The position numbers and the translations under genes were made by a program. A DNA stretch of 64,000 bases from an uncultured Candidatus Saccharibacteria bacterium (lineage in GTDB: Bacteria > Patescibacteriota > Minisyncoccia > Phycocordibacterales > UBA9973), in assembly GCA_964398205.1 (NCBI GenBank), contig CAYNLU010000002.1:1004-65003 (forward strand). Reading direction: 5' to 3'. This document shows positions 17,434 to 62,596 of this stretch, in pieces (the first letter of the stretch is position 1; every line of letters begins with the position of its first letter). The notes below the pieces were generated by a model. The model was not told the origin of the DNA. It saw only the letters and a program-made list of their open reading frames with translations, and ran no database searches.

Positions 17434-18906
17434 ATGAAAGAAAAGCTAGTAATTTATTGGGCAAGGCGGGATTTTAGATTGCGGGATAATCGAGCTTTAT
17501 TAAGCGCAGTTTTGAATGCTAAAAAAGAAAATATTAAATTCTTGCCGGTATTTATTATTGAGCCTTATATGACCCAAGGTAATCCGAAAGAGCAATTCGG
17601 CTACCCTTCTCGATATTTTTTATCAAAAGCTATTCCCCTTTTTAGTAAAAACTTTAAACAATTTTTATTAATAAAAGAGAAACCGGCTTCATTCTTTTTG
17701 AAACTTGCGAAAACTTATGAGCTCGAAATCTACGTAAACGAAGACGTTTATCCTGATTTCTATAAACAACTAAAAAAGATTAAAAATAGCAGTATCAATA
17801 TTAAACTTTTCCGAGATCAAATCACCGTAGATAAAAATACGAAAACCAGTATGAAAGATATCTATTCAGTATTTACTCCTTTTAAAAAGGCAGTTTGGCA
17901 ATCCTTCATAAACGAGAAAGAAGATAAAATTCCAAGCTTCGAAGGTTTAAGTTTTTTCAATCCTGAGAATTTCAAATTTAAAACTTTAAATCCTAAAAAT
18001 CAAAAAGAAATCCTAGCATTATTTAGCGACAAAGAAAGTATTTTGATTGATAGTGAGGTTATAAATCTCAAAGATATATTAAATACCAATAGAAATCTAG
18101 AGAATAATTATTTTAGTGAAGAAGAAGCTTTAAATCATTTTCGTAAATTTTTGAAAAATAAATTAAGTAAATACGACGAAAAAAGAGATTATTTAGATAA
18201 CGAGAATACTTCTAGGATGTCGCTCGCACTTGCTTGGGGACTAGTCTCTTCGAGAACTTTAGTAAAATTAATACAAAAACATTTCAAGAAAAATTTTGAA
18301 AATCCACTCTCCTTTTTAGAGTCGGATAAAGGCCCTTTGCAATTTATAAGTGAATTGATTTGGAGAGAGTTTTATAAATATTTATTATTTCACAACCCAA
18401 ATCTTTTAAATAAACCTTTTCAAAAGAAATTTGAAAATATAAAATGGATCAATCAAAAAGAAGCTTTAGAAAGATTTAAATTATGGATCAAGGGTGAAAC
18501 CGGCTACGCTATAGTAGACGCAGCAATGAACGAACTTCAGGCGACTGGCTATATGCATAATCGCGCCCGAATGATAGTTTCTTCTATACTTACTAAGAAT
18601 CTCGGAGTTTCTTGGCTTTGGGGTCAAGAATATTTTAGAGAAATGCTTATCGATTTAGATGAAGCTTCGAATAACGGAGGTTGGCAATGGGGAGCTTCGG
18701 TGGGCGCAGATCCGAAACCGATTCGGATTTTTAATCCCTATTTACAAGCTTCGAATTATGATCCGGATAATGTTTATCAAAATAAATGGTTAAGTAAAGA
18801 ATACTTAACAAATCCCCCGAAACCGATAATAGAGCATAAAGACGCTCGCGAACTCGCCTTAGAAAGATACGGATTATCAAAAAATATTAAAAATAGAAAC
18901 TATTAA
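17434..18906 (+). CDS. phr: deoxyribodipyrimidine photolyase / cryptochrome family
   Basis: 490 aa. FAD-binding motifs GYMHNRARMIVSSIL and WQWGAS. N-terminal photolyase alpha/beta domain (YWARRDFRLRDN). Confidence 0.85.
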   Translation: MKEKLVIYWARRDFRLRDNRALLSAVLNAKKENIKFLPVFIIEPYMTQGNPKEQFGYPSRYFLSKAIPLFSKNFKQFLLIKEKPASFFLKLAKTYELEIYVNEDVYPDFYKQLKKIKNSSINIKLFRDQITVDKNTKTSMKDIYSVFTPFKKAVWQSFINEKEDKIPSFEGLSFFNPENFKFKTLNPKNQKEILALFSDKESILIDSEVINLKDILNTNRNLENNYFSEEEALNHFRKFLKNKLSKYDEKRDYLDNENTSRMSLALAWGLVSSRTLVKLIQKHFKKNFENPLSFLESDKGPLQFISELIWREFYKYLLFHNPNLLNKPFQKKFENIKWINQKEALERFKLWIKGETGYAIVDAAMNELQATGYMHNRARMIVSSILTKNLGVSWLWGQEYFREMLIDLDEASNNGGWQWGASVGADPKPIRIFNPYLQASNYDPDNVYQNKWLSKEYLTNPPKPIIEHKDARELALERYGLSKNIKNRNY

Positions 18907-21837: not shown

Positions 21838-22500
21838 ATGAAATTTAATTTTGAAAAACATATAAAAACTCCTGAACCAGAAACAAAAAAAGAGGAATTA
21901 AATGATGAACAAATAGAAGCGAATTATGAACAAGAAATCTTAGCTGAAACTAAAAAACTAGGCACTAATTTAGCATCTTTAAAATCTGAAATAGACGCAT
22001 TAGGTGGTCCAGAAAAATTTAAAGAATATTTTGAAAAACCAGTATTAATGGAGAATGGAAATGAAATAAGAAAAGGTGAGGTTGGAAACATAGAAACAAG
22101 AGGTTCTTACGAAATCCAAAAATTAAGTCAAAAAATAAAAGAAAAGATAAGTTTAAAAGCTGCTGTAGCCTTAGCTTCTATTATGAATTTTATGCATATT
22201 TATGGTATATCCATGATGAATCAAAATATGGGTAATAAAAATATTCAAGAATATTTTAGCCAAGAAACAATGCAAACTATAATAAATAATTTTAATAATT
22301 TTTCAGAAAAAAATGCAGTTAATCAAGGAGCAATGATTACTGGATTAATGTTCAGTGCTATGATATTAAGTATTCAATCAGGCGCGATTTATACAGGGAT
22401 AAAAGATGCTATTGAAAAAAGAAAACTAAAAAGAGAAAAAGCGAAACAAGAATTGAAGTTCAAAATGACTGATACTGATATAGATAAAAAATTTAATTAA
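21838..22500 (+). CDS. hypothetical protein with C-terminal TM helix
   Basis: 220 aa, Lys/Glu-rich with one hydrophobic segment. Confidence 0.4.
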   Translation: MKFNFEKHIKTPEPETKKEELNDEQIEANYEQEILAETKKLGTNLASLKSEIDALGGPEKFKEYFEKPVLMENGNEIRKGEVGNIETRGSYEIQKLSQKIKEKISLKAAVALASIMNFMHIYGISMMNQNMGNKNIQEYFSQETMQTIINNFNNFSEKNAVNQGAMITGLMFSAMILSIQSGAIYTGIKDAIEKRKLKREKAKQELKFKMTDTDIDKKFN

Positions 22501-22503
22501 AAG

Positions 22504-22538
22504 AAACCCCATAGGTCTTACCTATGGGGTTTCTTTTT
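22504..22538. terminator. bidirectional rho-independent terminator
   Basis: aaaccccatagg-tctta-cctatggggttt followed by a T-run, between convergent genes. Confidence 0.7.
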
Positions 22539-22542
22539 AGTG

Positions 22543-23271
22543 CTATTTAAAATTTTTAATTAAATTCTCTTCAAAATTAACGGTATTTTCGGCAAATCCT
22601 CTATCTAAAAGATAAGTTGCGAATTTTTTATCATAACCGGTAATGATAAAAATTCCAGTTAAAATAAATAAAATAGCAAAGACTTTTTTAACTTTCTCTA
22701 AAGTATTTTCGTTTTTAGCGAAAATATTAATAACTTTATTCCCCAAATAAGCAACTAAAAATAGAGCGAGGGTAAGTCCTAAAATAAATCCCAAAAGATA
22801 TAGCAAGCCTTCATTTATACTTTTAGGTAAGACTGTTCCTAGGATAAAAAAGTAAGTCGGGCTACAAGTCGTAAAGACAGGACCTAAAGAAAAACCAATA
22901 AGTACATCTCCATAAGAATTATTTTTCTTATAACCCTCCCCTAAACTTTTATTTGCAGAGAGATTTAAAATTTTTACAAAAGGTAAATTAGCCCAAATAC
23001 TAGGAAACAAAATACTAAATCCTAAAAATATAATTATTAATCCTGAAAAATATTGCCAGAAGGTTTCCGGTATATCTATAAACAAAGTGCTCGCTTTTAA
23101 TAAAATTGTAAAAATAAAAACAGAAAAAGCTAAAGATAATATAACTCTAAAAGTTTTTGCACTAGATTTTCCAGCATCACTACTACCTACTACCACCGGC
23201 AACAAAGGAAAAATACAAGGCGCAAGTATAGTTAAAGCACCAGCTAAAATTGAAATCAAAAACAAAATCAT
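22543..23271 (-). CDS. ccdA: cytochrome c-type biogenesis / thiol-disulfide transporter CcdA (DsbD transmembrane domain)
   Basis: 242 aa polytopic membrane protein. Conserved Cys in TM1 (LAPCIFPLLP) and later TM (FTTCSPT). Confidence 0.7.
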   Translation of the reverse strand: MILFLISILAGALTILAPCIFPLLPVVVGSSDAGKSSAKTFRVILSLAFSVFIFTILLKASTLFIDIPETFWQYFSGLIIIFLGFSILFPSIWANLPFVKILNLSANKSLGEGYKKNNSYGDVLIGFSLGPVFTTCSPTYFFILGTVLPKSINEGLLYLLGFILGLTLALFLVAYLGNKVINIFAKNENTLEKVKKVFAILFILTGIFIITGYDKKFATYLLDRGFAENTVNFEENLIKNFK

Positions 23272-23272
23272 T

Positions 23273-23788
23273 TTATATTTGTTCGATTAGATCTGCTAAG
23301 GTTGGACTACCGGACCATTTCTTGATCAGATTACCATTTGCATCAACTTGTACTAAAGTATGCTGATAAGTTACTCCGTATTTTTTCTTTAAATCTTTAT
23401 ATTCATCATAATCAACATCCAAGATTAATAAATCTTTTGGAATATTGTTACGATTATTTTCTATATCTCTATCCAAAGCTCGACAAGTCGGACACCAAGA
23501 CGCCCTAAAAAATAAAACTACATTCCCTTTATTGGCGAAAGCGAGAGCTGAAGGCTCGTAAGTTTCATACCCAGAAACTAAACCTTCTTCACCTACCCTA
23601 GACTCTAAGTTTTCTTGATTAGATTTTTGATCATCTAAATCACTCTTTAGACTAGATTCGGAATTTATGTTTTTCTCATTATTTAAATTTTGATTTTCTT
23701 TATCAACAAAGAAAAATACAGCGAAGGCACTTATTAACAAAATAACAACAATTAAATTAAAGTAGCTAAAACCTTTTTGATATTTCAT
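23273..23788 (-). CDS. thioredoxin-like TlpA/ResA-family thiol-disulfide oxidoreductase
   Basis: 171 aa. Signal anchor, WCPTC active site. Translationally coupled to ccdA. Confidence 0.7.
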   Translation of the reverse strand: MKYQKGFSYFNLIVVILLISAFAVFFFVDKENQNLNNEKNINSESSLKSDLDDQKSNQENLESRVGEEGLVSGYETYEPSALAFANKGNVVLFFRASWCPTCRALDRDIENNRNNIPKDLLILDVDYDEYKDLKKKYGVTYQHTLVQVDANGNLIKKWSGSPTLADLIEQI

Positions 23789-23870
23789 ATTTTTATAATT
23801 AATATTAATTACTTTAATTATACTATAAAATCAAATTTACTTTTATACACAAAAGTATTAAGATAAATTT

Positions 23871-24296
23871 ATGAAACAATACGAAGAAATTCTAGACAAT
23901 AAAGGGCTTAAAAAAACTGAAATTCGTATTTTATTACTAGATTTCTTGTCTAAAATCAAAAAACCCATAAGTGCTTCAGAAATTTTACTTCAATTAAAGA
24001 AAAATAAACTTGATCAAGTTACTGTTTATCGAACTTTAGAGTCTTTTTTAGAAAAAGGCATCATTAAAAAAGTAGAAACTGGTAAAAGAGAGTCAGAATA
24101 CGAAATAATTGATAAAAAAAACGATCATCATCATATGATCTGCATGAAATGTAACCGAATCGAGGACTTTGTAGGTTGCGACAGCTTAAAAATCGTAGAA
24201 AGTGCATTAAAAAAAGCAAAAAACTTTAAAAAAATTAGTCATCATTCCTTTGATTTATTTGGTCTTTGCAATAATTGCGAGGAAAATAAAAAATAA
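23871..24296 (+). CDS. fur: Fur-family metalloregulator (Fur/PerR/Zur)
   Basis: 141 aa. HHHMICMKCNRIEDF...C..C metal-site motifs, N-terminal winged helix. Confidence 0.8.
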   Translation: MKQYEEILDNKGLKKTEIRILLLDFLSKIKKPISASEILLQLKKNKLDQVTVYRTLESFLEKGIIKKVETGKRESEYEIIDKKNDHHHMICMKCNRIEDFVGCDSLKIVESALKKAKNFKKISHHSFDLFGLCNNCEENKK

Positions 24297-24333
24297 ACTG
24301 TGGATAACTATAAGACATATTAAAAAATATGCC

Positions 24334-24360
24334 AAATACCTTTATATATAAAGGTATTTT
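24334..24360 (+). terminator. rho-independent terminator after fur
   Basis: aaatacctttatatataaaggtattt perfect palindrome followed by a T-run. Confidence 0.6.
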
Positions 24361-24382
24361 TAACTTTGCTCGAGGTATATCA

Positions 24383-24404
24383 AGTATGATAAAATTATCA
24401 TACT
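24383..24404. promoter_or_regulatory. Fur-box-like palindromic operator upstream of nrdB
   Basis: agtatgataaaattatcatact. The core TGATAAAATTATCA closely matches the 7-1-7 Fur box TGATAATnATTATCA. Confidence 0.5.
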
Positions 24405-24449
24405 AAGGGCGAATTTTTTAGAGAAAAATTATAAATTAATTAACATTTT

Positions 24450-25766
24450 ATGACTACAAACAATAATAAAAATCTTGTAAACTGCGTAACCAAAAGAGAT
24501 GGTACGATTGCAGATTTTAATATCAAAAAAATAGAAAACGCTATATATAAAGCGATGATTTCAGTAGGACAAGGTACGAACGAAGACGCAGAAAAAGTAG
24601 CAGAACAAGTGGTCATAAAATTAAATGCAAAATTTGCTACCGAATTAGATCACAGTGATGGAAAATTAGAGGTTTGCCCGAACGTAGAAGAAGTTCAAGA
24701 TATTGTCGAGGAAACCCTAATGGAAAAAGACTTTTTTGAAGTCGCAAAAGCTTATATTATTTACCGTAAAGAAAGAGCTGAGGAAAGAAAACGAGATATT
24801 TTCAAGAAAAGAATTCAATTAAAGCCTTATGAATACCCTGAATTATATGAATACGTTAGTGCTATCCGTCACTCTTATTGGATCCATACTGAATTTAACT
24901 TTGTTAGCGATATTCAAGACTTCAAAGTTAATGTTTCAGAAAACGAAAAATCTGCTATCAAGCACTGCATGCTAGCTATTGCTCAAATCGAGGTAGCAGT
25001 AAAAACTTTCTGGGGAGATATCTATAAAAAAATGCCAAAACCAGAAATCGGAGCAGTTGGAGCTACTTTTGCAGAAAGTGAAGTTCGCCACACAGACGCT
25101 TACTCTCACCTACTTGAAATCCTGGGCCTCAATACTGAATTCGGTAATATTAAAAATATTCCGGCTTTAATGAATAGAGTTAATTATTTAGAAAAAGCTA
25201 TAGCGAACAAAGGTAGTAATGATAATCGTGAATATACTCAATCAATACTCCTATTTTCTTTGTTTATAGAGCACGTTTCCCTCTTCTCTCAATTTCTAAT
25301 CATAATGTCTTTCAATAAGCACAAGAACCTATTCAAAGGAATTTCTAATGCAGTTGAAGCAACCTCCAAAGAAGAGCAAATTCACGGCTTATTCGGTATA
25401 GATCTTATAAATATTATTAGAGCAGAACATCCAGAATGGTTCGACAAAGAATTTGAGGATAGTATTGTGGCTATGTGTCACGAAGCTTTCGAATCAGAAA
25501 AAGGTGTAGTAGATTGGATTTTTGAAAAAGGAGAATTAGATTTTATGCCAAAAGTAGTAGTCTTAGAGTTTATCAAGCAAAGATTCAATAATTCTTTACA
25601 AAGTATAGGAATTAATAAAATCTTTGAAATTGACGAAATGTTCCTTAAAGAATCTGATTGGTTCTACGATGAAGTGATAGCAACTAAGCACGGAGACTTC
25701 TTTAACAAGAAATCGATAAATTACAACAAAAAAGGTAAAAGTATTACAAGCGACGATCTGTTTTAA
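24450..25766 (+). CDS. nrdB: class I ribonucleotide reductase beta subunit (NrdB) with N-terminal ATP-cone
   Basis: 438 aa. ATP-cone VTKRDGTIADFNIKKIENAIYKA, ferritin-like ligands ESEVRHTDAY (Tyr at H+4), LFIEH, EEQIHGLF. Confidence 0.75.
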   Translation: MTTNNNKNLVNCVTKRDGTIADFNIKKIENAIYKAMISVGQGTNEDAEKVAEQVVIKLNAKFATELDHSDGKLEVCPNVEEVQDIVEETLMEKDFFEVAKAYIIYRKERAEERKRDIFKKRIQLKPYEYPELYEYVSAIRHSYWIHTEFNFVSDIQDFKVNVSENEKSAIKHCMLAIAQIEVAVKTFWGDIYKKMPKPEIGAVGATFAESEVRHTDAYSHLLEILGLNTEFGNIKNIPALMNRVNYLEKAIANKGSNDNREYTQSILLFSLFIEHVSLFSQFLIIMSFNKHKNLFKGISNAVEATSKEEQIHGLFGIDLINIIRAEHPEWFDKEFEDSIVAMCHEAFESEKGVVDWIFEKGELDFMPKVVVLEFIKQRFNNSLQSIGINKIFEIDEMFLKESDWFYDEVIATKHGDFFNKKSINYNKKGKSITSDDLF

Positions 25767-25796
25767 TTATTAATAATATAATCATAAAAAATAAAC

Positions 25797-27527
25797 ATGT
25801 ACTGGTTAAATGAAAATAGTAGAAAATTTTTAGCAAAGGGTTACTTAATGGAAGGCGTTACTGCAGAAGAACGTATTCGTGAAATTGCAAATATTGCAGA
25901 AAAGTATTTAAATAAGCCGGGTTTCGCAGATAAGTTTTATGATTATATGTCTCGTGGCTTTTATTCTTTAGCCTCTCCTGTTTGGTCTAACTATGGACTT
26001 AGTAGAGGGTTACCTATAAGCTGTTTTTCAAGTTTTATTGCAGACGATATGTCTCGTATACTTTTTACTCATGCTGAAGTAGGTATGATGACTAAATACG
26101 GAGGAGGTACTGCTGGTCACTTTGCAGGTCTTCGTCCTCGTGGAGCAGTTATTAAAGATAACGGGCATTCTTCAGGAGCAGTACACTTTATGGAACTTTT
26201 TGATAATCTTATAAATATAGTTAGTCAAGGTTCTGTACGTCGTGGTCATTTCGCACCTTATTTACCTGTAGAGCACGGTGATATTGAAGAATTCCTAAAT
26301 ATCGGTAAAGAAGGTCACCCTATACAAGAATCTACTTATGCGGTTACTGTTACAGATGCTTGGATTAAAGATATGGTAGGAGGAGATCAAGAAAAAAGAA
26401 AGATTTGGGCAAAAATAATTCAACGCCGAACTGAAATAGGTTATCCTTATATTTTATTCTCTGATACCGTAAACAATAACACTGTAGACGTATATAAAGA
26501 TAAAAATATGAAAATTTATGGTAGTAATCTTTGTTCAGAAATTTGTTTACCTACTAGTGATGAAATTTCTTTTGTTTGTTGTTTGTCATCTATGAATTTA
26601 CGTCACTACAAAGAATGGAAAGATACTGACGCGGTTGAAACTTTAACTATGTTCCTCGATACTGTTATTTCTGACTTTTTAGCTCGACTCGAAAGTCTAC
26701 GTGATCATGAAGATCCTCAAAAGCAAAGTGCGTTTTATTTTATGCAACGTGCATATAAATTTGCTAAAGAACACAGAGCTTTAGGTTTAGGGGTTTTAGG
26801 TTGGCACACTTTCCTTCAAGAAAACAACATTGCTTTTGAAAGCAAAGAAGCTATCGAACTTAACAAAGAAATCTTTAAATTAATTAACGAGAAATCTTAT
26901 AATGCATCAGCAGAGCTTGCGAAAGAATACGGTGAACCAGAAATTCTAAAAGGTTACGGACGTCGCAATACTACCCTTATCGCTATCGCGCCTACTACTT
27001 CTTCGGCTTTTATCTTAGGTCAAGTTTCTCAAAGTATTGAGCCTATTATGTCTAACGCTTTTGTTAAAGACGTAGACAAGATGAAAGTTACAATCAAAAA
27101 TCCTACTCTAGAAAAATTATTAGAAGAAAAAGGTATGAACACTAATGAAGTTTGGAGTAGTATTCGGGACAATGACGGCTCCGTGCAACACTTAGACGGA
27201 TTAACTGAGCACGAGAAAATGGTATTTAGAACTTTCAGCGAACTTGATCAAAAGATAATCATAGATCAAGCTTCTGATCGTCAAAAATATATCGATCAAG
27301 CTCAATCTTTAAACCTTATGATTGACCCTACTATGCCTACTAAAGACTTAAATGCGCTTTATCTCTATGCTTGGGAAAAGGGGGTTAAAACTCTTTACTA
27401 TCAACACAGTATGAATGCCGCTCAACAATTCGGACGCAAGAAATTGCAAGAAGTTGAGATGAAAAAGAAAGCTCTCAAAGAAGCAGAAGAAAACGGCTAC
27501 AACGTCTGCGTAAGTTGCGAAGGATAA
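25797..27527 (+). CDS. nrdA: class I ribonucleotide reductase catalytic subunit (NrdA-like, no ATP-cone)
   Basis: 576 aa. NLCSEI active-site motif, C-terminal CVSCEG redox cysteines. No N-terminal ATP-cone. Confidence 0.75.
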   Translation: MYWLNENSRKFLAKGYLMEGVTAEERIREIANIAEKYLNKPGFADKFYDYMSRGFYSLASPVWSNYGLSRGLPISCFSSFIADDMSRILFTHAEVGMMTKYGGGTAGHFAGLRPRGAVIKDNGHSSGAVHFMELFDNLINIVSQGSVRRGHFAPYLPVEHGDIEEFLNIGKEGHPIQESTYAVTVTDAWIKDMVGGDQEKRKIWAKIIQRRTEIGYPYILFSDTVNNNTVDVYKDKNMKIYGSNLCSEICLPTSDEISFVCCLSSMNLRHYKEWKDTDAVETLTMFLDTVISDFLARLESLRDHEDPQKQSAFYFMQRAYKFAKEHRALGLGVLGWHTFLQENNIAFESKEAIELNKEIFKLINEKSYNASAELAKEYGEPEILKGYGRRNTTLIAIAPTTSSAFILGQVSQSIEPIMSNAFVKDVDKMKVTIKNPTLEKLLEEKGMNTNEVWSSIRDNDGSVQHLDGLTEHEKMVFRTFSELDQKIIIDQASDRQKYIDQAQSLNLMIDPTMPTKDLNALYLYAWEKGVKTLYYQHSMNAAQQFGRKKLQEVEMKKKALKEAEENGYNVCVSCEG

Positions 27528-27534
27528 AAAAAAT

Positions 27535-27558
27535 AAAAAACCACATTAGTGGTTTTTT
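27535..27558. terminator. bidirectional terminator hairpin
   Basis: aaaaaaccacattagtggtttttt between the nrdA stop and the convergent cob(I)alamin adenosyltransferase gene. Confidence 0.6.
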
Positions 27559-27566
27559 ATTTTTAT

Positions 27567-28139
27567 TTATTTGTAATTTGGTTTTTTGTATGGAAAACCT
27601 TTTTTATAATTAGCATATCTAGCTAAAGCATATAGAACGCTCGATAATCTATTTAAATATTGAAGACTTATAGGATTTACTTCTTTTTCTTTTTTATCAG
27701 ATAGAATGACAAGAGATCTCTCTACCCTTCTCGAAACAGCTCTTAATACGTCCAAATATGCTCCTAATTGGGTTCCACCTGATATTATGAAGGAATCAAT
27801 CGTTGGTAAAAATTTTTCTACTTCCGAAATTCTATTTTCTAAAAAAGAAATATGATCTAATTTTAGATAAAAAGTGTCGCTTGCTAATTCCGCTTGAATA
27901 GAAAATAAATTCTCTTGTATTTCTTCCAAGAAATCTTCATAAGTAAAAATATTTTCTAAAGAAAAATTATCTTCTTTTGCTAAAGTTTTAGCAAAACCAA
28001 TACCAGAATTCAATTCATCAACATTACCTAAAGCTTCAAAGATAAAAGCTCCCTTGGTAATTCTTTCACCTGGTTTAGAATTAAATAATTTTGTCGTACC
28101 ATTATCCCCTTTTCTAGTGTATAACATATTAGATTTCAC
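27567..28139 (-). CDS. PduO-type ATP:cob(I)alamin adenosyltransferase
   Basis: 190 aa. N-terminal MLYTRKGDNGTTKLF is the PduO-type ATR signature. Overlaps the nrdJ stop by 11 nt. Confidence 0.75.
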   Translation of the reverse strand: MKSNMLYTRKGDNGTTKLFNSKPGERITKGAFIFEALGNVDELNSGIGFAKTLAKEDNFSLENIFTYEDFLEEIQENLFSIQAELASDTFYLKLDHISFLENRISEVEKFLPTIDSFIISGGTQLGAYLDVLRAVSRRVERSLVILSDKKEKEVNPISLQYLNRLSSVLYALARYANYKKGFPYKKPNYK

Positions 28140-30399
28140 AAATACCTGCTACGCAAGCAAGCTCTTTTTTAACTTCTGTTTCATCTTCTTTTTCATAAGT
28201 TACAATCTTAGAAAAATCAATTCCTTCAAAATGTTTCAACATAGATTCGTATTTTTCTTTCGTAATTTCTTCATAAGGAGCAAGCGGATAGACGTGATTA
28301 TCTCTTGGCAAAAAAGACAAACCTCCTACTAAATCCCAGTTTTCGTATATCCAGTTTGCTACCGATAACCATTCATAATCTCCAACAGAAATAGTTACAG
28401 AAGGATTATGTTCAGTATAATTAACCTTAACAGTTTTCCAATGTTCAAGCTGATCTAAAGCAGAAATATCATTTTTACAAATCGAACCTTCTGGCGCTTT
28501 TACTGGAAATTCTAATACATAAGTGGTAGCATTTTCTTCATTTTGACCAATTTCTGGGAAATATGGGACTCCTTGATCTTTTAACATTTTAAAAAGTGAA
28601 TCTGTCGCTGAAATACGAACTCTCCTGATATAGTATTCGGAATGTCTAGTATGCATACCAGAGGAACAATCTACAGTCTGAGAAACGGTACCGGAAGGCT
28701 TAACACAAGTAATACAAGTAGATTGATTGATTTCAAATTTTTTTGCGTACTTTTTATTTATTTCAATTGCATAATTTTTTAATTTTTCTAAAACTTTTCC
28801 ATCGCGAGCAACTTTTGAATCCCATTGACCAGTAACAGAAACTCCTAGCAATCTTTCTTTTTCACAATTTTTCTTCCATTCTTTTGAAAGATATGGGAAA
28901 TAAGTAAGAGTTGATTGATAAGTACCTAAAATAGTAGCTAAACGAATTTTACGCATTAAAGTTTCTTCAGTATCTTCTTTACGAGCAATAACTTCAGACA
29001 AATTACAAAATTGTTTTGATTGTAAAATAATTTCTCCACAAGGATTAGTCCCCCAAGCTGGATAAATTCCTCCTTTGAATTGATCTAATCTTCTTTTTGG
29101 TAAAGTTTTAGCTAAACTTCCACGATTAAATATTCCTCTTTCACCAGATCCGGATTTTACCAAAGCATTCCATTCATCCAAAAATTCAGAAGTAGTTGGT
29201 TTTTGTATATAAACAGCTGAATTATTTGCGAGCATTCGTTGTGACTCAGAAATATAAAATTGGCCTTTTTTAGAATCTCTTATAGCTTCATCGTCTAAAT
29301 CAGAAAGAGATATCATAGCACTACGACGCACTCCCCCAGCAACAACACATTCTCCTATTTTACAAATAATATCGTGAGCATCCATATTATTTAGTCGACG
29401 TCCTTGTCTACGCAATATTCTTTCTCGAGAAAAATTGATTAAAGATTTTAATGGTTCTGGTCCAGAGCTTTTTCCACCCATAGTTTTTAAACGAGATCCG
29501 GCTTTACGTATTTTAGAATAATCAAAATTTACATCATTACCATCAAACCAAGTTTCTAAAGCAAAAGTAAAAGCATCTGCCCAACCTTCTTTGCTATCTA
29601 AAACTACATAAGTAGGTAATATTTTTCCAGTTTGTTTTTTAATTTGTGGTAAAGCTTGAATATTTTCACTCTCAACAGACCAACCCACACCCGTACCACA
29701 CATAGATATATACATTATTTCAGCAAAGTCTTTTAAGGCTACAGGGGCAATAAAAGAACAATTGTAAGCACAAACATTAGTTTTACGAGCAGGTTTACCA
29801 GCAAACTGTACCAGCCTCATAGAAGGCATAACTTCTTGATTTAAAATAGCTTCACGAATTTCTTTATATTCAGAATCGCTCAATTTACCGTTTAAATTCT
29901 CTCTCATAAAATCAACATAACGATCAACTGTTTCTATCCAAGTTTCTCTTCGACCCTCTTCCTCAATCCATTTAGCATAAGTACGATAATAAACAAATTC
30001 AGACAAAGAATTCCGAAAATATTTTTTACTTTGATTTACCAAATCTCTAACTTTTTCTGGGACAAAACCTATCTTTTCTCTAACACTAGCTCTTTCTTTA
30101 CGATATAAAATATAAGCCTTTGCTGTTTGCAAAAAATTTGCAGAAATTAATTCATTCTCAACTATGTCCTGAATAGTTTCAACTTTTGGTATGAAGTTTT
30201 TAATTTTATTTTCTTTTTTAAGATTCAAAAGGGCCTTTAACACATTTTGCGTAATTCTTTTAGCATCCACTTCTACCCCTTCTCCGGTCGCATTTAAAGC
30301 TTTAAAAATAGCCCTAAAGATTCTGTTTTCATCGAAAGGCACAATAGAACCATCTCTTTTTTCGATGTTTAGTAGTACACTTTTTTGATTTTTTTTCAT
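28129..30399 (-). CDS. nrdJ: class II (adenosylcobalamin-dependent) ribonucleotide reductase NrdJ with N-terminal ATP-cone
   Basis: 756 aa. ATP-cone IEKRDGSIVPFDENRIFRAI, RNR barrel motifs (NPCGEI, C-terminal Cys pair). Followed by the B12 adenosyltransferase. Confidence 0.75.
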   Translation of the reverse strand: MKKNQKSVLLNIEKRDGSIVPFDENRIFRAIFKALNATGEGVEVDAKRITQNVLKALLNLKKENKIKNFIPKVETIQDIVENELISANFLQTAKAYILYRKERASVREKIGFVPEKVRDLVNQSKKYFRNSLSEFVYYRTYAKWIEEEGRRETWIETVDRYVDFMRENLNGKLSDSEYKEIREAILNQEVMPSMRLVQFAGKPARKTNVCAYNCSFIAPVALKDFAEIMYISMCGTGVGWSVESENIQALPQIKKQTGKILPTYVVLDSKEGWADAFTFALETWFDGNDVNFDYSKIRKAGSRLKTMGGKSSGPEPLKSLINFSRERILRRQGRRLNNMDAHDIICKIGECVVAGGVRRSAMISLSDLDDEAIRDSKKGQFYISESQRMLANNSAVYIQKPTTSEFLDEWNALVKSGSGERGIFNRGSLAKTLPKRRLDQFKGGIYPAWGTNPCGEIILQSKQFCNLSEVIARKEDTEETLMRKIRLATILGTYQSTLTYFPYLSKEWKKNCEKERLLGVSVTGQWDSKVARDGKVLEKLKNYAIEINKKYAKKFEINQSTCITCVKPSGTVSQTVDCSSGMHTRHSEYYIRRVRISATDSLFKMLKDQGVPYFPEIGQNEENATTYVLEFPVKAPEGSICKNDISALDQLEHWKTVKVNYTEHNPSVTISVGDYEWLSVANWIYENWDLVGGLSFLPRDNHVYPLAPYEEITKEKYESMLKHFEGIDFSKIVTYEKEDETEVKKELACVAGICEI

Positions 30400-30401
30400 T
30401 T

Positions 30402-30947
30402 TTAGATTTGCTTAGAATTCAAAAAATTCATAATGAATGAAGTTTCAAATTTTTTATTAGTAATAACAAATTTATACAAGCTAGGACTTAAAACAATAGC
30501 AAAAGAAACATTTCCCAATAAATGCCATAAGGTAAATGGGATTTGTCCTGTTAAAGCTTCTATAAAAGGTTGATTGTAGAATAACGGACCAAAAGATAAA
30601 CCAGTGATTCCGTCAAAAAACAAAGTTCCTATAATTGCGAAAGATACGTAATTCCATTTATTTTCTTTATATTTTTTAAAAAAATAAACTGCTCCAAAAC
30701 CCAAAACTCCATAAGTTGTAGCTGTTAATAATGTCCAATAACCTAATTTTTGAGTTAGTAAATCATAAATAATGATATTCAAGAAAGCAAAAAGAAAACC
30801 AGCGACGCCGCCATAAGCACGACTGAAAGGCATTTGAGTCGCTAAAATAGGTTCTATATTCGGGGGACGAAAAGGAATAAGCCTAATAAGGCTACAAGCA
30901 ACTATACCGAGAGTAAACTTAAACCAATTCTTTCTATATGTCTCCAT
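30402..30947 (-). CDS. small polytopic membrane protein (possible ECF-type vitamin S-component; cobalamin uptake?)
   Basis: 181 aa, ~5 TM helices. 3 nt upstream of nrdJ in the same operon. S-component assignment rests on size, topology and context only. Confidence 0.35.
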   Translation of the reverse strand: METYRKNWFKFTLGIVACSLIRLIPFRPPNIEPILATQMPFSRAYGGVAGFLFAFLNIIIYDLLTQKLGYWTLLTATTYGVLGFGAVYFFKKYKENKWNYVSFAIIGTLFFDGITGLSFGPLFYNQPFIEALTGQIPFTLWHLLGNVSFAIVLSPSLYKFVITNKKFETSFIMNFLNSKQI

Positions 30948-31121
30948 AAATATATTTAATTATTAATAATAATAGTTTTATAAAAAACTACTCGTGTATC
31001 AATTATAATCAACATGTCTCAGTAAAGGAAGGGTGGATAACTTATAGTAAAAAACCCTTAAAAATACAAGACGGCTTAAAAACAATAGACACAAATCCTG
31101 ATATTTTGTTATACTTAATAA

Positions 31122-31586
31122 GTGGAAAATAATAATAAACTATCTTGGGCTGTGCCTGCATATAATCACTCTAAAAAAAGCATTGATTGGTTTTGGGCTT
31201 TAGGTCTTATTGTATTAGTTGGAGCAATAACTTCCTTTATTTTTGATAATTACTTTTTTTCTATTTTACTTGTATTAGGAGGAATACTTATGGGTCACTT
31301 TGCAAACGAAGAACCTGAAACTCTATATTATGAATTGAACGAAAAAGGTTTAACTATCAAAGACCGCATATATCCTTTTAAGGCAATCAAATCTTATTAC
31401 ATAAACACTGAAAAGAACCCTACCCTATTTATTAAAACAGACAGGTTCTTCTTGCCTGTAATACCAGTCGCTATTAACCTAAATGTGGCTCAAAAAATCA
31501 ACGAAATATTTGAAAAAGAAGGTATAGAAGTAGAAGAAATGAGTGAAGGGCCAATAGAGCAAATAATGGATATGATAGGTTACTAA
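31122..31586 (+). CDS. hypothetical membrane protein
   Basis: 154 aa with two N-terminal TM helices. Confidence 0.4.
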   Translation: MENNNKLSWAVPAYNHSKKSIDWFWALGLIVLVGAITSFIFDNYFFSILLVLGGILMGHFANEEPETLYYELNEKGLTIKDRIYPFKAIKSYYINTEKNPTLFIKTDRFFLPVIPVAINLNVAQKINEIFEKEGIEVEEMSEGPIEQIMDMIGY

Positions 31587-31640: not shown

Positions 31641-31712
31641 GCTTCCGTCGTTCAATGGATAGGACGCAACTTTGCGGAAGTTGTGATGCAGGTTCGATTC
31701 CTGCCGGGAGCA
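31641..31712 (+). tRNA. tRNA-Arg (anticodon GCG)
   Basis: Cloverleaf: acceptor GCTTCCG/CGGGAGC, D-stem GTTC/GGAC, anticodon stem CAACT/AGTTG with loop TTGCGGA, T-arm GCAGG-TTCGATT-CCTGC. 72 nt, no encoded CCA. Confidence 0.75.
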
Positions 31713-31715
31713 CAA

Positions 31716-32435
31716 ATGATATTTCCTATACGTATAAATAAATATTTAAGTGAAAAGGGTTATGCGACCCGCAGAGAAGCCGATAGACTTATCGAAGATG
31801 GTAAGGTTTTTTTAAATGGCAAGAAGGCTAAGCTCGGAGATAAAGTAAACGAGAGCGATAAAGTAGAACTCAAAGGTGAGAAAAAAGTTTATTCATATTA
31901 CGCTTATAATAAAGCTCGCGGAGTATTAACTAACAAAGATAACGAAGAAGACCAAGATATTAAAAATGCTTTAAAAAAGGAAAACTTAAAAGAAAACATC
32001 TTCCCTATTGGCAGATTAGACAAAGATTCTCACGGGCTTATAATACTCACTAATGATGGGCGAATTACAGATAAATTGTTAAATCCAGACTACTATCACG
32101 AAAAAGAATACGTGGTAAAAACCAAAAATAAATTAAGAAATAATTTTAAAGAAAAGATGGAGGCTGGAGTTATACTTAAAGGCAATAAAAATACGAAAGA
32201 CTATAAAACTAAACCTTGTAAAGTTAAAATCATAAACGATTATACTTTTAGTATAATTTTAACCGAAGGCAAAAAACATCAAATTCGCCGCATGTGTGAC
32301 GCACTCTTTGCAGAAGTTTTAGAGCTTAAAAGAGTTCGAATTATGAATATCGAACTAAAAAAACTTCAAGCAAATTCTATACGCAAAATCGAAGGTAAAG
32401 AATTAGAAACTTTCTTGAAAAGCTTAGGATTTTAA
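31716..32435 (+). CDS. RluB/RsuA-family pseudouridine synthase (S4 domain + PseudoU_synth_2)
   Basis: Start moved to ATG 31716 to clear the tRNA. S4 motif INKYLSEKGYATRREADRLIEDGKVFLNG. Catalytic GRLDKDSHGLIILTNDG. Confidence 0.75.
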   Translation: MIFPIRINKYLSEKGYATRREADRLIEDGKVFLNGKKAKLGDKVNESDKVELKGEKKVYSYYAYNKARGVLTNKDNEEDQDIKNALKKENLKENIFPIGRLDKDSHGLIILTNDGRITDKLLNPDYYHEKEYVVKTKNKLRNNFKEKMEAGVILKGNKNTKDYKTKPCKVKIINDYTFSIILTEGKKHQIRRMCDALFAEVLELKRVRIMNIELKKLQANSIRKIEGKELETFLKSLGF

Positions 32436-33459: not shown

Positions 33460-34467
33460 TTATATATTAAATAACGGATTAATAATACCCAAAGCGACAA
33501 GCCCACCCAAAAATGCAAATAAACCGAGTCCTATCACGACTATTCCAGCAGATTTAAAGAAAAGATTAGCATACTTGGAATTAGCAAAAGAAGACGAACC
33601 AAAAGACAATAATAGAAGTACCGGCAAAGTCCCTAAAGCAAAAGCAAACATAATTAAACTTCCATTAAGAAATGATCCACTCGATAGAGCCACAACTTGC
33701 ATCGATTGAGTAAAACCACAAGGCAAGAAAAAAGTACCAAAACCAACGAGCAAAGGAGTGAGAGTTTTATGTTCTATTTTTCTAAAGAATTTAAAAATCC
33801 CAGAGTGCAATACGATTTTATTCTTTGAAAATACTCCCACCAAATTCAAACCGAGGAATATCATGACGATAGATGCGATTATACCCAAAATAGCAGTCAA
33901 GGTAAAATTAATACCAATAATATTTCCCACTAACCCCAAAGCTCCACCGAGCAAACCGAAACTAACTAATCTCCCAACGTGGAACAAAATGAAGGTTCTC
34001 TTGTCGCTCACATTGTCTTGAGACATCTTGGCGGACAAAGACAATACGAGCCCTCCAACAATAGCCAAACACGAAGACACTGAAGCTATAAGTCCGATAA
34101 TAAAACTTGTAATTGGTGTAGTTTTGCCTCCAATACCTAAGTTTAAAATTCCAGATTTTTGAAGCATAAAGAAAAGCGCTAAAAAACCTAAGCCGATAGG
34201 TATTGCTTGCCATAAAATATCATTGCTCTTTTTTTCTACTTTAAGATTCTCAGCTGAAAGAATATAGCCATTGGTTTTAATAAGACTCCCCAGTATTTCA
34301 ATTAACTCTTCTTTACTTTTCGGACTATCAGTCTCAATATCTACTGTCTTAGTTTTTAAATTAACTTCTACTTTTTTTACTATATCCTCTTCCCCTAAAA
34401 CATCTTCAATTAATATTTTGCAAGATGCACAATGTGTCCCCGAAACATGAAATGTATATTTATTCAT
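33460..34467 (-). CDS. HMA (heavy-metal-associated) domain fused to CcdA/DsbD-like transmembrane protein
   Basis: 335 aa. N-terminal GTHCASCK HMA motif. Polytopic membrane domain with conserved Cys (SVSSCLAIVGG, FFLPCGFTQ). Confidence 0.6.
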   Translation of the reverse strand: MNKYTFHVSGTHCASCKILIEDVLGEEDIVKKVEVNLKTKTVDIETDSPKSKEELIEILGSLIKTNGYILSAENLKVEKKSNDILWQAIPIGLGFLALFFMLQKSGILNLGIGGKTTPITSFIIGLIASVSSCLAIVGGLVLSLSAKMSQDNVSDKRTFILFHVGRLVSFGLLGGALGLVGNIIGINFTLTAILGIIASIVMIFLGLNLVGVFSKNKIVLHSGIFKFFRKIEHKTLTPLLVGFGTFFLPCGFTQSMQVVALSSGSFLNGSLIMFAFALGTLPVLLLLSFGSSSFANSKYANLFFKSAGIVVIGLGLFAFLGGLVALGIINPLFNI

Positions 34468-34476
34468 AAATTTATT

Positions 34477-36735: not shown

Positions 36736-36741
36736 AAAAAA

Positions 36742-37305
36742 TTAAATATTATACCAATCCTTTCTCCAGTTCTTAAAAATTTCTAAAGTATCTTTAAGAA
36801 AAGTTTCGACCGCATCTGCATTATTCAAAACCTCCAATCTACTTGATTTGGTTTTTATTTCTTTTGTCATAAGTAAACCCATTTCATGATGAGCAATAAG
36901 TGCATTCAAAAAACGCAAATCAAAATTATCATCGTAAACTCCTAAGTTTACAACAACTGGGTCTTTGATATTACGAGTATCTTTATACCAATCTTTTTTC
37001 CAGGTATACAGTTCGTCTATAGCCGAAGGCTCATTGGTTAATATTTTTTCAGCTAAACCTTTTATTTCAGGGCGTTCGGAGTATAAAGCAGCCTCTTGCG
37101 CTAGAAGCATTGCTCCCCTATGATGAGATATCATCGCATTTAGATATCTTAAATCTAAATTTCTATCAGCTCGACCAAAATCCATTTCAGACTTGTCATA
37201 CATACTAACCTTATATTCAGGATTTACAAAAAATCCTAAAAGCAAACCTGAAACAAAAGACACAACTATTAATGCTATCGCTAAAATTGTAGATATTTTT
37301 GACAT
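36742..37305 (-). CDS. DUF305-family protein (periplasmic, copper-resistance associated)
   Basis: 187 aa, signal anchor. Duplicated N(A)(M/L)I(S/A)HH...A motif characteristic of DUF305. Confidence 0.7.
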   Translation of the reverse strand: MSKISTILAIALIVVSFVSGLLLGFFVNPEYKVSMYDKSEMDFGRADRNLDLRYLNAMISHHRGAMLLAQEAALYSERPEIKGLAEKILTNEPSAIDELYTWKKDWYKDTRNIKDPVVVNLGVYDDNFDLRFLNALIAHHEMGLLMTKEIKTKSSRLEVLNNADAVETFLKDTLEIFKNWRKDWYNI

Positions 37306-40995: not shown

Positions 40996-41057
40996 AGAAA
41001 TATTCTAATATAAATACTGACAAAAGTACATTTTTAACATTTCAAACAAATACCACA

Positions 41058-41177
41058 ATGGAAGCACTAAATGCATTATTGGTTTTTTTAGTTACCGGTT
41101 TAGCAATGCTTGGGATCGTCAAAATTTGCGAATTTTTTAAAAATTATTCTTCTAACTTTAAAAAAAGTGAGAGATGA
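41058..41177 (+). CDS. small hydrophobic peptide (39 aa), not in ORF track
   Basis: ATG 41058 to TGA 41177. MEALNALLVFLVTGLAMLGIVKICEFF... Confidence 0.25.
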   Translation: MEALNALLVFLVTGLAMLGIVKICEFFKNYSSNFKKSER

Positions 41178-41395
41178 ATGGATTGTGGCTAATATTTATA
41201 GGCTTGTGTATGGTTGTTTTTTTAATAAAAGCTTTTGAGGATGAACTTGAAGAGATTTTAAGTAAAATAGCAACTTTTTTTGGGACTTATCATAGGTTCC
41301 TATCGTTTGGCTTAATAGCCATATTTGAAACAATGAAACCACGTACAGATACGTGGTACCAGAAAAAAGTTAAAGAGTTTGAAGCCCTTAAATAG
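41174..41395 (+). CDS. small membrane protein (73 aa)
   Basis: ORF with N-terminal TM helix. Overlaps the preceding small ORF. Confidence 0.3.
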   Translation: MNGLWLIFIGLCMVVFLIKAFEDELEEILSKIATFFGTYHRFLSFGLIAIFETMKPRTDTWYQKKVKEFEALK

Positions 41396-41402
41396 GGCTT
41401 TT

Positions 41403-44141: not shown

Positions 44142-44173
44142 AAAACTTGATTATAACATAAAAGAGCTTTATT

Positions 44174-57124: not shown

Positions 57125-57240
57125 TTATCCACAATATTCAATAAAAAGAATTTGCTTTGGGATTATCTTTTTGATAAAACTATAATAGTTAAAAATAATT
57201 TTTTATTAAGGTCGTTTAAAAAAATAAATTTAAAAATAAA

Positions 57241-62553: not shown

Positions 62554-62596
62554 ATGTTTATATTTTATATATTTAATCTATTAATATTGTTAGCCC

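Follow-up and report, generated by a model that had tools for sequence, protein, structure and literature searches.

The window, the 64-kb stretch of DNA analysed here, carries an nrdB-nrdA operon in which the radical-generating subunit of a class I ribonucleotide reductase (RNR) begins with an ATP-cone. This arrangement raises the question of which cofactor the enzyme uses and whether its cone works as an allosteric switch. We consider it very likely that the operon encodes a class Id aerobic RNR of Paceibacteria with a Mn2(IV,III) cofactor and a dATP switch borne by the cone. The enzyme type is already well described, and the pair in the window is closely orthologous to a system whose structure and biochemistry have been characterised. 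For the enzyme itself, the main change is that the expectation of a tyrosyl radical is corrected; the added value lies in the distribution, with beta-borne cones being the rule in the genome-reduced, uncultured Paceibacteria.

Architecture of the nrdBA operon

The operon and the domains of NrdB are laid out as follows.

24450..25766, + strand: nrdB, 438-aa radical-generating subunit of class Id (NrdBi) that begins with an ATP-cone; best PDB match 5OLK
24486..24779, + strand: ATP-cone of NrdB, residues 13-110 (Pfam PF03477, E 2.8e-21)
24810..25631, + strand: ferritin-like metal-binding core of NrdB, residues 121-394 (Ribonuc_red_sm, E 3.5e-60)
25632..25766, + strand: C-terminal tail of NrdB, residues 395-438, and stop codon (Y425 and F438 invariant in 82 of 82 sequences)
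25797..27527, + strand: nrdA, 576-aa minimal catalytic subunit of class Id (NrdAi) that lacks an ATP-cone (Pfam, TIGR02510 and PDB matches)
27529..27564, no strand given: terminator-like hairpin, bidirectional, between nrdA and the convergent PduO gene

The first-pass annotation had placed an ATP-cone on NrdB, and both this assignment and the two reading frames hold: PF03477 scores 76.3 bits on the NrdB cone against a gathering score of 25.8, and the peptide VTKRDGTIADFNIKKIENAIYKA quoted there corresponds to NrdB residues 13-35. In an alignment of 82 sequences, the conserved cone residues are K15/R16, F23, D84, E87, M91, K100, Y102, I103, I104, Y105 and R106. K15/R16, E87, Y102, Y105 and R106 are invariant (82 of 82), and the last-helix motif reads AKAYIIYR; at the cone interface positions, M91 is replaced by Ala in 27 and D84 by Asn in 19 of the 82 members of this CPR family. 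A role of an aromatic residue in the nucleotide-binding ATP-cone has been described (PMC9110341). The AlphaFold2 model of NrdB predicts cone residues 11-110 at a pLDDT of ~82-93 as a beta-hairpin and four helices (E12-14, E20-22, H25-39, H44-68, H79-92 and H96-114). A Foldseek search with this model returned 5OLK as its best PDB match (E 3.6e-31, 400 columns). The tail, which presumably binds NrdA and carries radical transfer, ends in ...SITSDDLF; it has low pLDDT in the model, that is, it is disordered, as it is in 5OLK (PMC5794259).

The catalytic subunit had been described as a 576-residue protein that lacks a cone and starts directly in the barrel. Its length and the missing cone stand, whereas its start needs amending, as a small all-alpha N-terminal domain at residues 3-70 (Pfam Ribonuc_red_lgN) precedes the barrel domain. 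When the window was searched in all six frames with an HMM built from 82 cones, two cones emerged, those of NrdB and of the neighbouring NrdJ; the search found neither a hidden or divergent NrdA cone, which had been named as one of the findings that would overturn the first reading, nor NrdR. A missed cone exon upstream of nrdA is impossible because the gap between nrdB and nrdA is only 30 nt. NrdA scores 767 bits with TIGR02510 (cut-off 602), and its key residues C76, N244, C246, E248, C261, Y534/Y535 and the C-terminal C571-x-x-C574 are conserved among 72 homologues. Its PDB matches, 6dqx (E 6.9e-216) and 6dqw (E 1.6e-178), we take to be the class Id alpha structures of Rose et al. 2019. In a passage of a preprint that cites this work (bioRxiv 10.1101/2022.04.23.489257), Rose et al. 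2019 are credited with solving class Id alpha subunits.

Cofactor class and the proposed dATP switch

Judged by sequence, the NrdB-NrdA pair is a class Id RNR (NrdAi/NrdBi). The top PDB matches of NrdB are all class Id beta subunits (5olk, E 8.7e-181; 6sf4, 3.8e-158; 8dq3, 7e-120; 6cwo, 3.1e-93), Foldseek ranks the class Id beta structures in the same order, and the next family, Chlamydia class Ic, follows at an E of 1e-16. The beta subunit is not named by any curated HMM because every NCBIfam beta-subunit equivalog model scores under its cut-off on NrdB (best 147 bits versus 237). The metal ligands E181, E211, H214, E274, E309 and H312 are invariant (82 of 82), as are Y218, T305 and the class-Id Lys and Trp, K185 and W188, which lie within the motif QIEVAVKTFWGD that is identical to L. 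blandensis. In L. blandensis the equivalent Lys, K174, reaches towards the metal site from a bulge in helix B, and the equivalent Trp, W177, is invariant across the subclass. Class Id is defined by its Mn2(IV,III) oxidant, which is activated by superoxide or H2O2 without NrdI; the corresponding L. blandensis ligands are listed as E170, E200, H203, E263, E298 and H301 (PMC6754362). By analogy with these enzymes, the cofactor is most likely manganese rather than a tyrosyl radical.

This departs from the first-pass annotation, which had read an E-x-x-H...Y pattern with the tyrosine at H+4 as the mark of a tyrosyl-radical enzyme. The pattern itself is present, as E211, H214 and Y218, and a class Ia or Ib-like enzyme with a Y218 radical near a diiron or Mn2(III,III) site would accord with the invariance of this tyrosine next to the first ExxH (82 of 82) and with six carboxylate/histidine ligands that make up a generic R2 site. 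We nevertheless regard such an enzyme as quite improbable. The presence of the tyrosine does not discriminate, because class Id enzymes that lack a tyrosyl radical have the same residue; the closest characterised homologues, with 47-72% identity in the core, belong without exception to class Id and are devoid of this radical (PMC5794259, PMC6187632, PMC6754362), with the F. ignava NrdB described as showing 'no trace of a tyrosyl radical' (PMC6187632). K185 and W188 also speak against it, as do the family models: NrdB scores 40 bits with TIGR04171 (class Ib NrdF, cut-off 355) and 19.6 bits with NF006576 (class Ia beta, cut-off 346). In addition, no NrdI-like neighbour recurs within ~6 kb in 80 loci. 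Flanking-ORF clustering over 81 loci, examined for NrdI, NrdH/Grx and thioredoxin accessory genes, found that only nrdA recurs. In the window itself, no flavodoxin-like gene lies beside the operon.

For the class Id enzyme, we propose a mechanism in which metal identity, the absence of a tyrosyl radical, the binding of two nucleotides and tetramerisation are taken over by homology at 66% identity. NrdA would serve as a minimal catalytic subunit that retains specificity regulation and lacks the overall-activity site. The dimanganese site of NrdB would, by homology, be oxidised by superoxide or H2O2 to Mn2(IV,III), and this cofactor would itself start the transfer of the radical, which would pass along the C-terminal tail (Y425) and reach C246 in NrdA, with no stable tyrosyl radical and no NrdI taking part in the cofactor chemistry. 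The N-terminal cone would be the master on/off switch: ATP on the cone would favour a beta dimer and hence active alpha2beta2, and two dATP per cone would cause the cones of two dimers to pair via their last two helices, giving a beta4 that could form only non-productive alpha2beta4 or alpha4beta4 with alpha2. The dATP-induced inactive beta4 is the most likely mechanism because residues and family match the published L. blandensis enzyme, whose NrdB forms beta4, binds two dATP per cone and contains Mn(III)Mn(IV) (PMC5794259). A symmetric inhibited RNR complex is known to block the asymmetric active one (PMC8350387). Counting against this reading are the nucleotide stoichiometry, which can vary among beta cones, with one ATP in F. 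ignava and two in L. blandensis (PMC6187632), and the divergence of the window cone from that of L. blandensis (46% identity, 7-residue insertion). An O2/superoxide-dependent manganese RNR with a dATP switch would point to an oxygen-exposed lifestyle and a tight dNTP economy in Paceibacteria.

Distribution, regulatory signals and gene neighbourhood

The host is a Paceibacteria (Patescibacteria/CPR) bacterium, and the earlier view that a beta-borne cone is notable in it proved overstated. The arrangement is the norm in Paceibacteria: NrdB bears a cone in 80 of 80 retrieved species-level loci and in all of the best 120 protein clusters, and the beta-alpha operon is kept in 78 of the 80 loci. Homologues at 64-94% identity are spread over hundreds of contigs from Patescibacteria, among which are one complete chromosome and sequences longer than 600 kb, and the cone-on-beta arrangement is also found in Firmicutes phages. 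Published surveys, which drew on RefSeq, present cones on the beta subunit as uncommon and largely Flavobacterial, and our literature searches found nothing on cone-bearing NrdB in Patescibacteria, CPR or Parcubacteria. In a neighbour-joining tree of the NrdB core domain, L. blandensis has a near-basal place among the cone-bearing sequences, and the sole 'Flavobacteriales' MAG contig (L045) nests within a Patescibacteria clade; the tree gives no direction of transfer between Bacteroidota and CPR because it contains one reliable Bacteroidota sequence. A search with the cone alone against 1.84 billion representative proteins yielded 2957 relatives from every RNR type, among which nothing was diagnostic of the origin of the cone.

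Several features upstream of nrdB and downstream of nrdA bear on the control and surroundings of the operon (L numbers denote related loci).

23871..24296, + strand: Fur-family regulator gene directly upstream (Pfam FUR, E 1.3e-21)
24299..24307, + strand: perfect DnaA box TGTGGATAA lying 143 nt before the start codon of nrdB; candidate DnaA control site for nrdBA
24334..24359, + strand: perfect hairpin (13+13 nt) with a T-run behind it; compensatory changes preserve its stem in L001-L004 and L082
24383..24404, + strand: palindrome AGTATGATAAAATTATCATACT around an extended -10 element, candidate operator
27567..30947, - strand: class II RNR module, absent from the closest relatives
27567-28139, - strand: PduO-type cobalamin adenosyltransferase
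28129-30399, - strand: monomeric RTPR-like NrdJ with its own ATP-cone
30402-30947, - strand: ECF S-component-like membrane protein

The window contains four perfect DnaA boxes versus 0.45 expected, two of the others being in the dnaA-dnaN intergenic region, and in the set of 80 related loci DnaA boxes lie at most 400 nt upstream of nrdB in 28 of 52 cases versus 2.2 expected. If the box upstream of nrdB is a true control site, it would couple dNTP supply to replication initiation. The hairpin probably terminates transcription of the fur-like gene that precedes it. The palindrome and the extended -10 element (TGATAAAAT at 24387-24395, with TGnTAAAAT conserved in relatives) probably mark the nrdBA promoter, with the palindrome as a candidate operator. 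Outside the window, the palindrome recurs in full only in L001, and L082 has an imperfect version; a scan of the window for more copies that might point to a regulon gave no convincing second site. Only the closest relatives (L001, L003, L004 and L081-L084) share the linkage of the fur-like gene to nrdBA, and the product of this gene is a candidate metal- or peroxide-responsive regulator. None of the more specific names Fur, PerR, Zur and Mur could be assigned to this protein, as all NCBIfam scores fall far under the cut-offs.

Near the RNR genes, no Rfam element or riboswitch was found at gathering scores, and none at E<=1 across 23700-31200. In a sister clade, a covarying 5' leader RNA of ~200 nt that belongs to no Rfam family occurs only before cone-bearing nrdB; it is possibly a riboswitch or attenuator and could give a new RNR-linked regulatory RNA. 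More tentatively, and with considerable doubt, we suggest that in a large part of the Paceibacteria, across hundreds of species, the class Id enzyme with a cone-bearing beta subunit is the standard aerobic RNR, and that its switch, operating as published, is joined by undescribed layers of control (the DnaA box, the leader RNA of one clade, and the Fur-family gene with the -10 palindrome).

The class II module is a separate acquisition outside the class I operon and provides the cell's second, B12-dependent RNR; in the closest relatives, the homologues of 31122-31586 and 31683-32435 come immediately after nrdA. The ECF S-component-like protein of the module has no relative in the PDB and matches riboflavin-type proteins only weakly, and a part in cobalamin uptake is a guess from context. 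Elsewhere in the window are thioredoxin-like and DsbD-like genes; close relatives lack them, and their products appear to be extracytoplasmic.

These data also bear on the function of the cone and on the provenance of the operon. We judge it very improbable that the cone is not a dATP off-switch but, for example, an ATP-only binding module or an oligomerisation or solubility domain, with control left to transcription. Such a role would fit the cone being the least conserved part of NrdB (46% identity to L. blandensis versus 72% for the core), the variation of some interface residues within the CPR family, and the signals at the promoter level, namely the DnaA box, the -10 palindrome and the structured leader of the sister clade. 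It sits poorly, however, with the invariance of the nucleotide-contacting Lys-Arg, Y102, Y105, R106 and E87 in 82 sequences, and with both beta-borne cones tested to date, those of L. blandensis and F. ignava, being functional switches; moreover, the cone is kept at full length in 80 of 80 species-level genomes, which argues for purifying selection on function. The chance that the operon is foreign, having come from a Flavobacterial or phage sequence through mis-assembly or mis-binning, is practically negligible: the 66% identity to a Bacteroidota enzyme and the phages with the same fusion at 57-59% identity are outweighed by flanks (Fur-like, metallophosphatase, peptidoglycan-binding protein, RluA, RuvA, Fpg, UvrC and UvrA) that are syntenic with the Paceibacterota assemblies L001 and L082, by a GC content that is uniform across the region, by the many Patescibacteria contigs with homologues at 64-94% identity, and by dnaA and dnaN on the same 64-kb window.

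Comparison with known systems

The first-pass annotation had named the Leeuwenhoekiella blandensis enzyme as the precedent, and the two do belong to the same family. L. blandensis NrdAi/NrdBi (5OLK, 6SF4/6SF5; Rozman Grinberg et al. 2018, eLife, PMC5794259) likewise has a cone on NrdB, a cone-less NrdA of ~570 aa and the gene order beta-alpha, and the window NrdB aligns with 5OLK over residues 10-438 (E 8.7e-181), with an overall identity of 66% that drops to 46% within the cone. L. blandensis K174, W177, Y207 (Y218 here), T294 and the six metal ligands are identical in the window NrdB, and the C-terminal ...SITSDDLF is common to both. The alignment that had been proposed as a check shows the cone Lys-Arg (K15/R16) to be present, and the interface residues D73, M80, K89, I92/I93 and R95 of L. 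blandensis are identical to D84, M91, K100, I103/I104 and R106 in the window. At least five of the seven beta4 interface positions named for that enzyme (D73, D76, M80, K89, I92, I93 and R95) are thus identical, and those that are not probably reflect a numbering slip in the L. blandensis paper; its Asp76 corresponds to Glu76 and Asp77 in the 5OLK numbering used here, and the window has E87 and E88. The two systems differ in a 7-residue insertion in the second helix of the window cone, in their hosts (Patescibacteria versus Bacteroidota) and in their class II RNRs, as the class II enzyme in the window has an ATP-cone of its own, whereas that of L. blandensis has none (PMC5794259).

Phage cone::NrdBi proteins (Staphylococcus/Mammaliicoccus myoviruses and Sporosarcina phage Lietuvens) share 57-59% identity over 98% of the query, with the cone covered, but come from a viral context and are often annotated as 'class Ia'. 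Facklamia ignava Grx::ATP-cone::NrdBi is of the same NrdBi subclass with a beta-borne cone, which acts as a dATP off-switch via beta4, and its cofactor is Mn2(IV,III) without a tyrosyl radical (PMC6187632); unlike it, the window NrdB has no extra glutaredoxin domain at its N-terminus, and no conserved reductant gene lies beside the operon. The class Id RNRs of Flavobacterium johnsoniae and Aggregatibacter actinomycetemcomitans (6CWO, 8DQ3, 6DQW) have the same core and a minimal alpha subunit, and the window beta core is 46-47% and 55-56% identical to theirs, respectively; these enzymes would be without an overall-activity switch, because their solved beta chains have no ATP-cone. Finally, the N-terminal cone of Pseudomonas aeruginosa NrdA (5IM3) is of the same kind as that of the window NrdB, binding two dATP tail-to-tail and self-associating via its last two helices (PMC5794259, PMC11226230), but it is carried on the catalytic subunit and leads to an alpha4 ring rather than to beta4.

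The ATP-cone of NrdB and class assignment

The first-pass annotation described a class I RNR that carries its ATP-cone, the overall-activity switch domain, on the small subunit NrdB and not on the catalytic subunit NrdA. Both reading frames are located exactly where it had placed them:

24450-25766, + strand: nrdB, 438 aa; ATP-cone and RNR small-chain ferritin-like domain (Pfam)
25797-27527, + strand: nrdA, 576 aa; small all-alpha N-domain, then the barrel; cone-less (Pfam)

Pfam assigns residues 13-110 of NrdB to an ATP-cone (76.3 bits, gathering score 25.8; E = 2.8e-21) and residues 121-394 to the RNR small-chain ferritin-like domain (E = 3.5e-60), while in NrdA it detects the all-alpha N-domain at residues 3-70, the barrel after it and no cone. 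In an AlphaFold2 model (36 homologues) the NrdB cone folds as a β-hairpin and four helices, with pLDDT values of 82-93. The cone on NrdB is real and not a chance match. The nrdB-nrdA spacing is 30 nt, and there is therefore no space for an overlooked NrdA cone. In addition, a hidden Markov model made from 82 homologous cones has only two matches when all six frames of the 64-kb window are searched, namely NrdB and the class II enzyme next to it. The proposed architecture thus stands, also with respect to a divergent cone on NrdA.

The suggested kinship with the Leeuwenhoekiella blandensis enzyme is borne out by PDB searches, as the best match of NrdB is the cone-bearing L. blandensis NrdB structure 5OLK (E = 8.7e-181, aligned from residue 10 to the C-terminus), followed by cone-deleted L. 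blandensis NrdB and then by the class Id β subunits of Aggregatibacter actinomycetemcomitans and Flavobacterium johnsoniae. The window and L. blandensis NrdB proteins are 65.6% identical overall (cone, 46%; core plus tail, 72%). NrdA passes the NCBIfam model TIGR02510 (767 bits, curated cut-off 602), with 6dqx and 6dqw as its top PDB hits. On the basis of these matches to both subunits, the pair is assigned to the class Id RNRs, phylogenetic subclass NrdAi/NrdBi.

Functional residues, cofactor and predicted mechanism

Residues were compared using the numbering of the L. blandensis papers, and conservation was read from an 82-sequence alignment. The six metal ligands listed for L. blandensis (Glu170, Glu200, His203, Glu263, Glu298 and His301; PMC6754362) correspond to E181, E211, H214, E274, E309 and H312 in the window NrdB; the class-Id lysine Lys174, which enters the site from the helix B bulge, corresponds to K185, the subclass-invariant Trp177 to W188, and Tyr207 and its hydrogen-bond partner Thr294 to Y218 and T305, respectively. 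All of these residues are identical to those of L. blandensis and invariant across the 82 sequences. The cone is the least conserved portion of NrdB; within it, the Lys-Arg pair K15/R16 and the last-helix motif AKAYIIYR (K100, Y102, I103, Y105 and R106) are invariant in the same alignment. Residues forming the L. blandensis β4 cone-cone interface (Asp73, Met80, Lys89, Ile92, Ile93 and Arg95; PMC5794259) have D84, M91, K100, I103, I104 and R106 as their window counterparts, and 'Asp76' of PMC5794259 corresponds to Glu76-Asp77 in the numbering applied here to the 5OLK chain and to E87-E88 in the window. Two cone interface positions vary among CPR (candidate phyla radiation) family members in the 82-sequence alignment. 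Relative to L. blandensis, the window cone contains a 7-residue insertion in its second helix. The C-terminus of NrdB (...SITSDDLF) is the same in both proteins; Y425 in this tail is invariant. The NrdA catalytic set is present (C76, N244, C246, E248, C261, Y534/Y535 and the C-terminal C-V-S-C) and conserved in 72 full-length homologues, except for the C-terminal Cys pair (~50 of 72).

A tyrosyl-radical enzyme had been proposed from the E-x-x-H...Y pattern, but this proposal is not supported. The tyrosine is also kept in class Id, where it does not store a radical, and the window NrdB scores far under the cut-offs of the class Ia and class Ib β-subunit models. In Facklamia ignava NrdB, 'no trace of a tyrosyl radical' was reported (PMC6187632). 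By analogy, the cofactor reading should be corrected from a tyrosyl radical to a Mn2(IV,III) centre; judging from the homologue, this radical initiator would form from Mn(II)2 and superoxide or H2O2 without NrdI (PMC6754362). In view of the high identity to the biochemically and structurally characterised L. blandensis enzyme and the retention of almost all named functional residues, the mechanism is most likely the one published for that homologue. In the presence of ATP, β would be a dimer that forms active α2β2, whereas two dATP molecules would bind tail-to-tail in each cone, and the dATP-loaded cones of two dimers would pair via helices 3 and 4 to produce β4, which would take up α2 only as inactive α2β4 or α4β4 (PMC5794259). 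Inhibition would probably operate via a quasi-symmetric complex that is unable to reach the asymmetric active geometry (PMC8350387).

Regulatory and genomic context of the operon

The region upstream of nrdB, the remaining DnaA boxes and a second RNR module comprise the following features:

23871-24296: Fur-family regulator gene, directly upstream of nrdB
24299-24307: perfect DnaA box TGTGGATAA, 143 nt upstream of nrdB
24334-24359: perfect 13+13-nt hairpin with a T-run, upstream of nrdB
24383-24404: 22-nt palindrome AGTATGATAAAATTATCATACT, enclosing the extended -10 element of the probable nrdB promoter
24387-24395: extended -10 element TGATAAAAT, inside the palindrome
27567-30947, - strand: B12-dependent class II RNR module, downstream of nrdA on the opposite strand
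57125-57133, 62605-62613 and 62759-62767: other perfect DnaA boxes

The half sites of the palindrome are Fur-box-like (TGATAA/TTATCA). The Fur-family gene is linked to nrdB in the closest relatives only, the full palindrome is confined to the window and L001 (a related locus from the genome scan), and the window contains no second palindrome site. Perfect DnaA boxes number 4 in the window, as compared to 0.45 expected. Of the 52 perfect boxes in 80 related loci, 28 are positioned ≤400 nt upstream of nrdB versus 2.2 expected (binomial P ~7e-25), with the boxes concentrated in few clades and therefore not independent events. In E. coli, DnaA is an established regulator of nrdAB (reviewed in PMC8203912); by analogy, the window operon may be subject to similar DnaA-coupled control. 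The dnaN and dnaA genes (61456-63985, - strand) hold two of the window's four boxes in the gap between them, and the window therefore ends near a probable replication origin; the RNR operon is located ~38 kb from dnaA.

A sister Paceibacteria clade, whose NrdB is 64-68% identical to that of the window, contains a conserved ~200-nt leader before nrdB that starts with CACACGA...TCGTGTGTCGGAGGTAAGACACAC. The leader occurs at 20 of the 80 genome loci and on 31 metagenome stretches (L086-L116); the leader alignment A3 includes:

L055, 5777-6000
L050, 5773-6000
L049, 5791-6000
31 more sequences

In all 25 stretches that extend far enough downstream, a cone-bearing nrdB follows 200-330 nt after the leader, and nrdA follows nrdB in those leader-bearing contigs that reach that far; since nrdB leaders themselves supplied the search pattern, an exclusive link to nrdB is not proven. 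For a three-helix model, pairing across the 34-sequence alignment amounts to 93%, as compared to 25-50% when the partners are slid. Compensatory changes occur at 16 pairs, a level that none of 500 shuffles attained, and 13 pairs of a single 18-pair helix covary. The leader matches no Rfam family at E ≤ 0.5 and is a candidate new cis-regulatory RNA. It is absent from the window, where the nrdB leader is only ~50 nt.

The class II module encodes a PduO-type adenosyltransferase, a monomeric RTPR-like NrdJ (best PDB match 1L1L) and an ECF S-component-like membrane protein. An ATP-cone is present on NrdJ too; it shares 38% identity with the NrdB cone and finds the L. blandensis NrdB cone (5OLK) as its best PDB match; ATP-cones are reported in <10% of class II RNRs (PMC11226230). 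The module forms an insertion between nrdA and the following gene of the backbone that the closest relatives (loci L001, L003, L004 and L082) lack; in these, the next two window genes directly follow nrdA. Two further blocks are missing in the syntenic L082, so that three small islands interrupt a backbone that is otherwise conserved. The block at 21838-23788 encodes a DsbD-like membrane protein, a thioredoxin-like protein with a membrane anchor and a 220-aa protein of unknown function. The other, at 33460-37305, is a heavy-metal block that encodes an HMA/DsbD_2 protein, an HMA-domain P-type ATPase and a DUF305 protein.

Elsewhere, the window contains a LOOT RNA, an orphan structured RNA (Rfam RF03000; 11025-11151, + strand; 81 bits, gathering score 46.4). 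A tRNA gene (31641-31712, + strand) overlaps the proposed GTG start of the pseudouridine-synthase ORF 31683-32435, whose true start therefore lies further downstream. A possible helicase-nuclease of defence or repair, 1633 aa in length, is encoded at 4516-9417 (+ strand); it joins DUF4011 and superfamily-1 helicase domains (AAA_11/AAA_12) to an MTES_1575 restriction-endonuclease-like domain at the C-terminus. Genes for a DNA photolyase and for UvrA, UvrB and UvrC (17434-18906 and 39799-46360) alongside an O2-dependent RNR are consistent with a light- and oxygen-exposed habitat of the host.

Host, distribution and relation to known systems

The genes flanking the operon are syntenic with two CPR assemblies (L001 and L082), and the window also contains dnaA and dnaN; the nrdBA operon is therefore native to a CPR bacterium. 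When a single genome was scanned for each GTDB species, 232 stretches encoding relatives were identified, of which the best 80 were analysed; almost all of these are labelled Paceibacterota, Paceibacteria, Nomurabacteria, Kaiserbacteria, Parcubacteria or Patescibacteria, and they include a complete 0.99-Mb chromosome. Throughout these best 80 loci the gene order is β-α, all NrdB homologues (422-452 aa) carry the cone, and the complete NrdA homologues (538-588 aa) are all cone-less; a single apparent 623-aa NrdB ORF is a read-through artefact over a run of N. The arrangement is common in the host lineage. The only 'Flavobacteriales' MAG contig among the best 80, L045 (JALVEJ010000288.1, 1702 nt), has an NrdB core 86% identical to Nomurabacteria loci and a Paceibacteria-type structured leader, and is probably a mis-binned CPR contig.

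In a 5.8-billion-protein collection, at least 8000 clusters match at E ≤ 1e-20. All of the best 120 (70-94% identity) have both Pfam domains, and every source-named cluster among them is annotated as a Paceibacterota, Pacebacteria, Nomurabacteria or Patescibacteria β subunit. The cone-NrdB fusion also occurs in Staphylococcus/Mammaliicoccus and Sporosarcina phages (57-59% identity). In a neighbour-joining tree of the core domain, L. blandensis branches close to the base of the clade with cones; the tree is compatible with either direction of transfer.

Within the literature library searched, no paper ties the cone-on-NrdB arrangement to Patescibacteria or CPR, and its distribution may be under-reported. 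A published phylogeny noted that β-borne cones accompany β-α gene order and are carried by most of the NrdAi subclade that diverged latest (bioRxiv 10.1101/2022.04.23.489257). The system is of a type that is already known and well characterised, and not a new kind. What interest remains mostly concerns the regulatory surroundings of the operon and its distribution in CPR, and not the enzyme.
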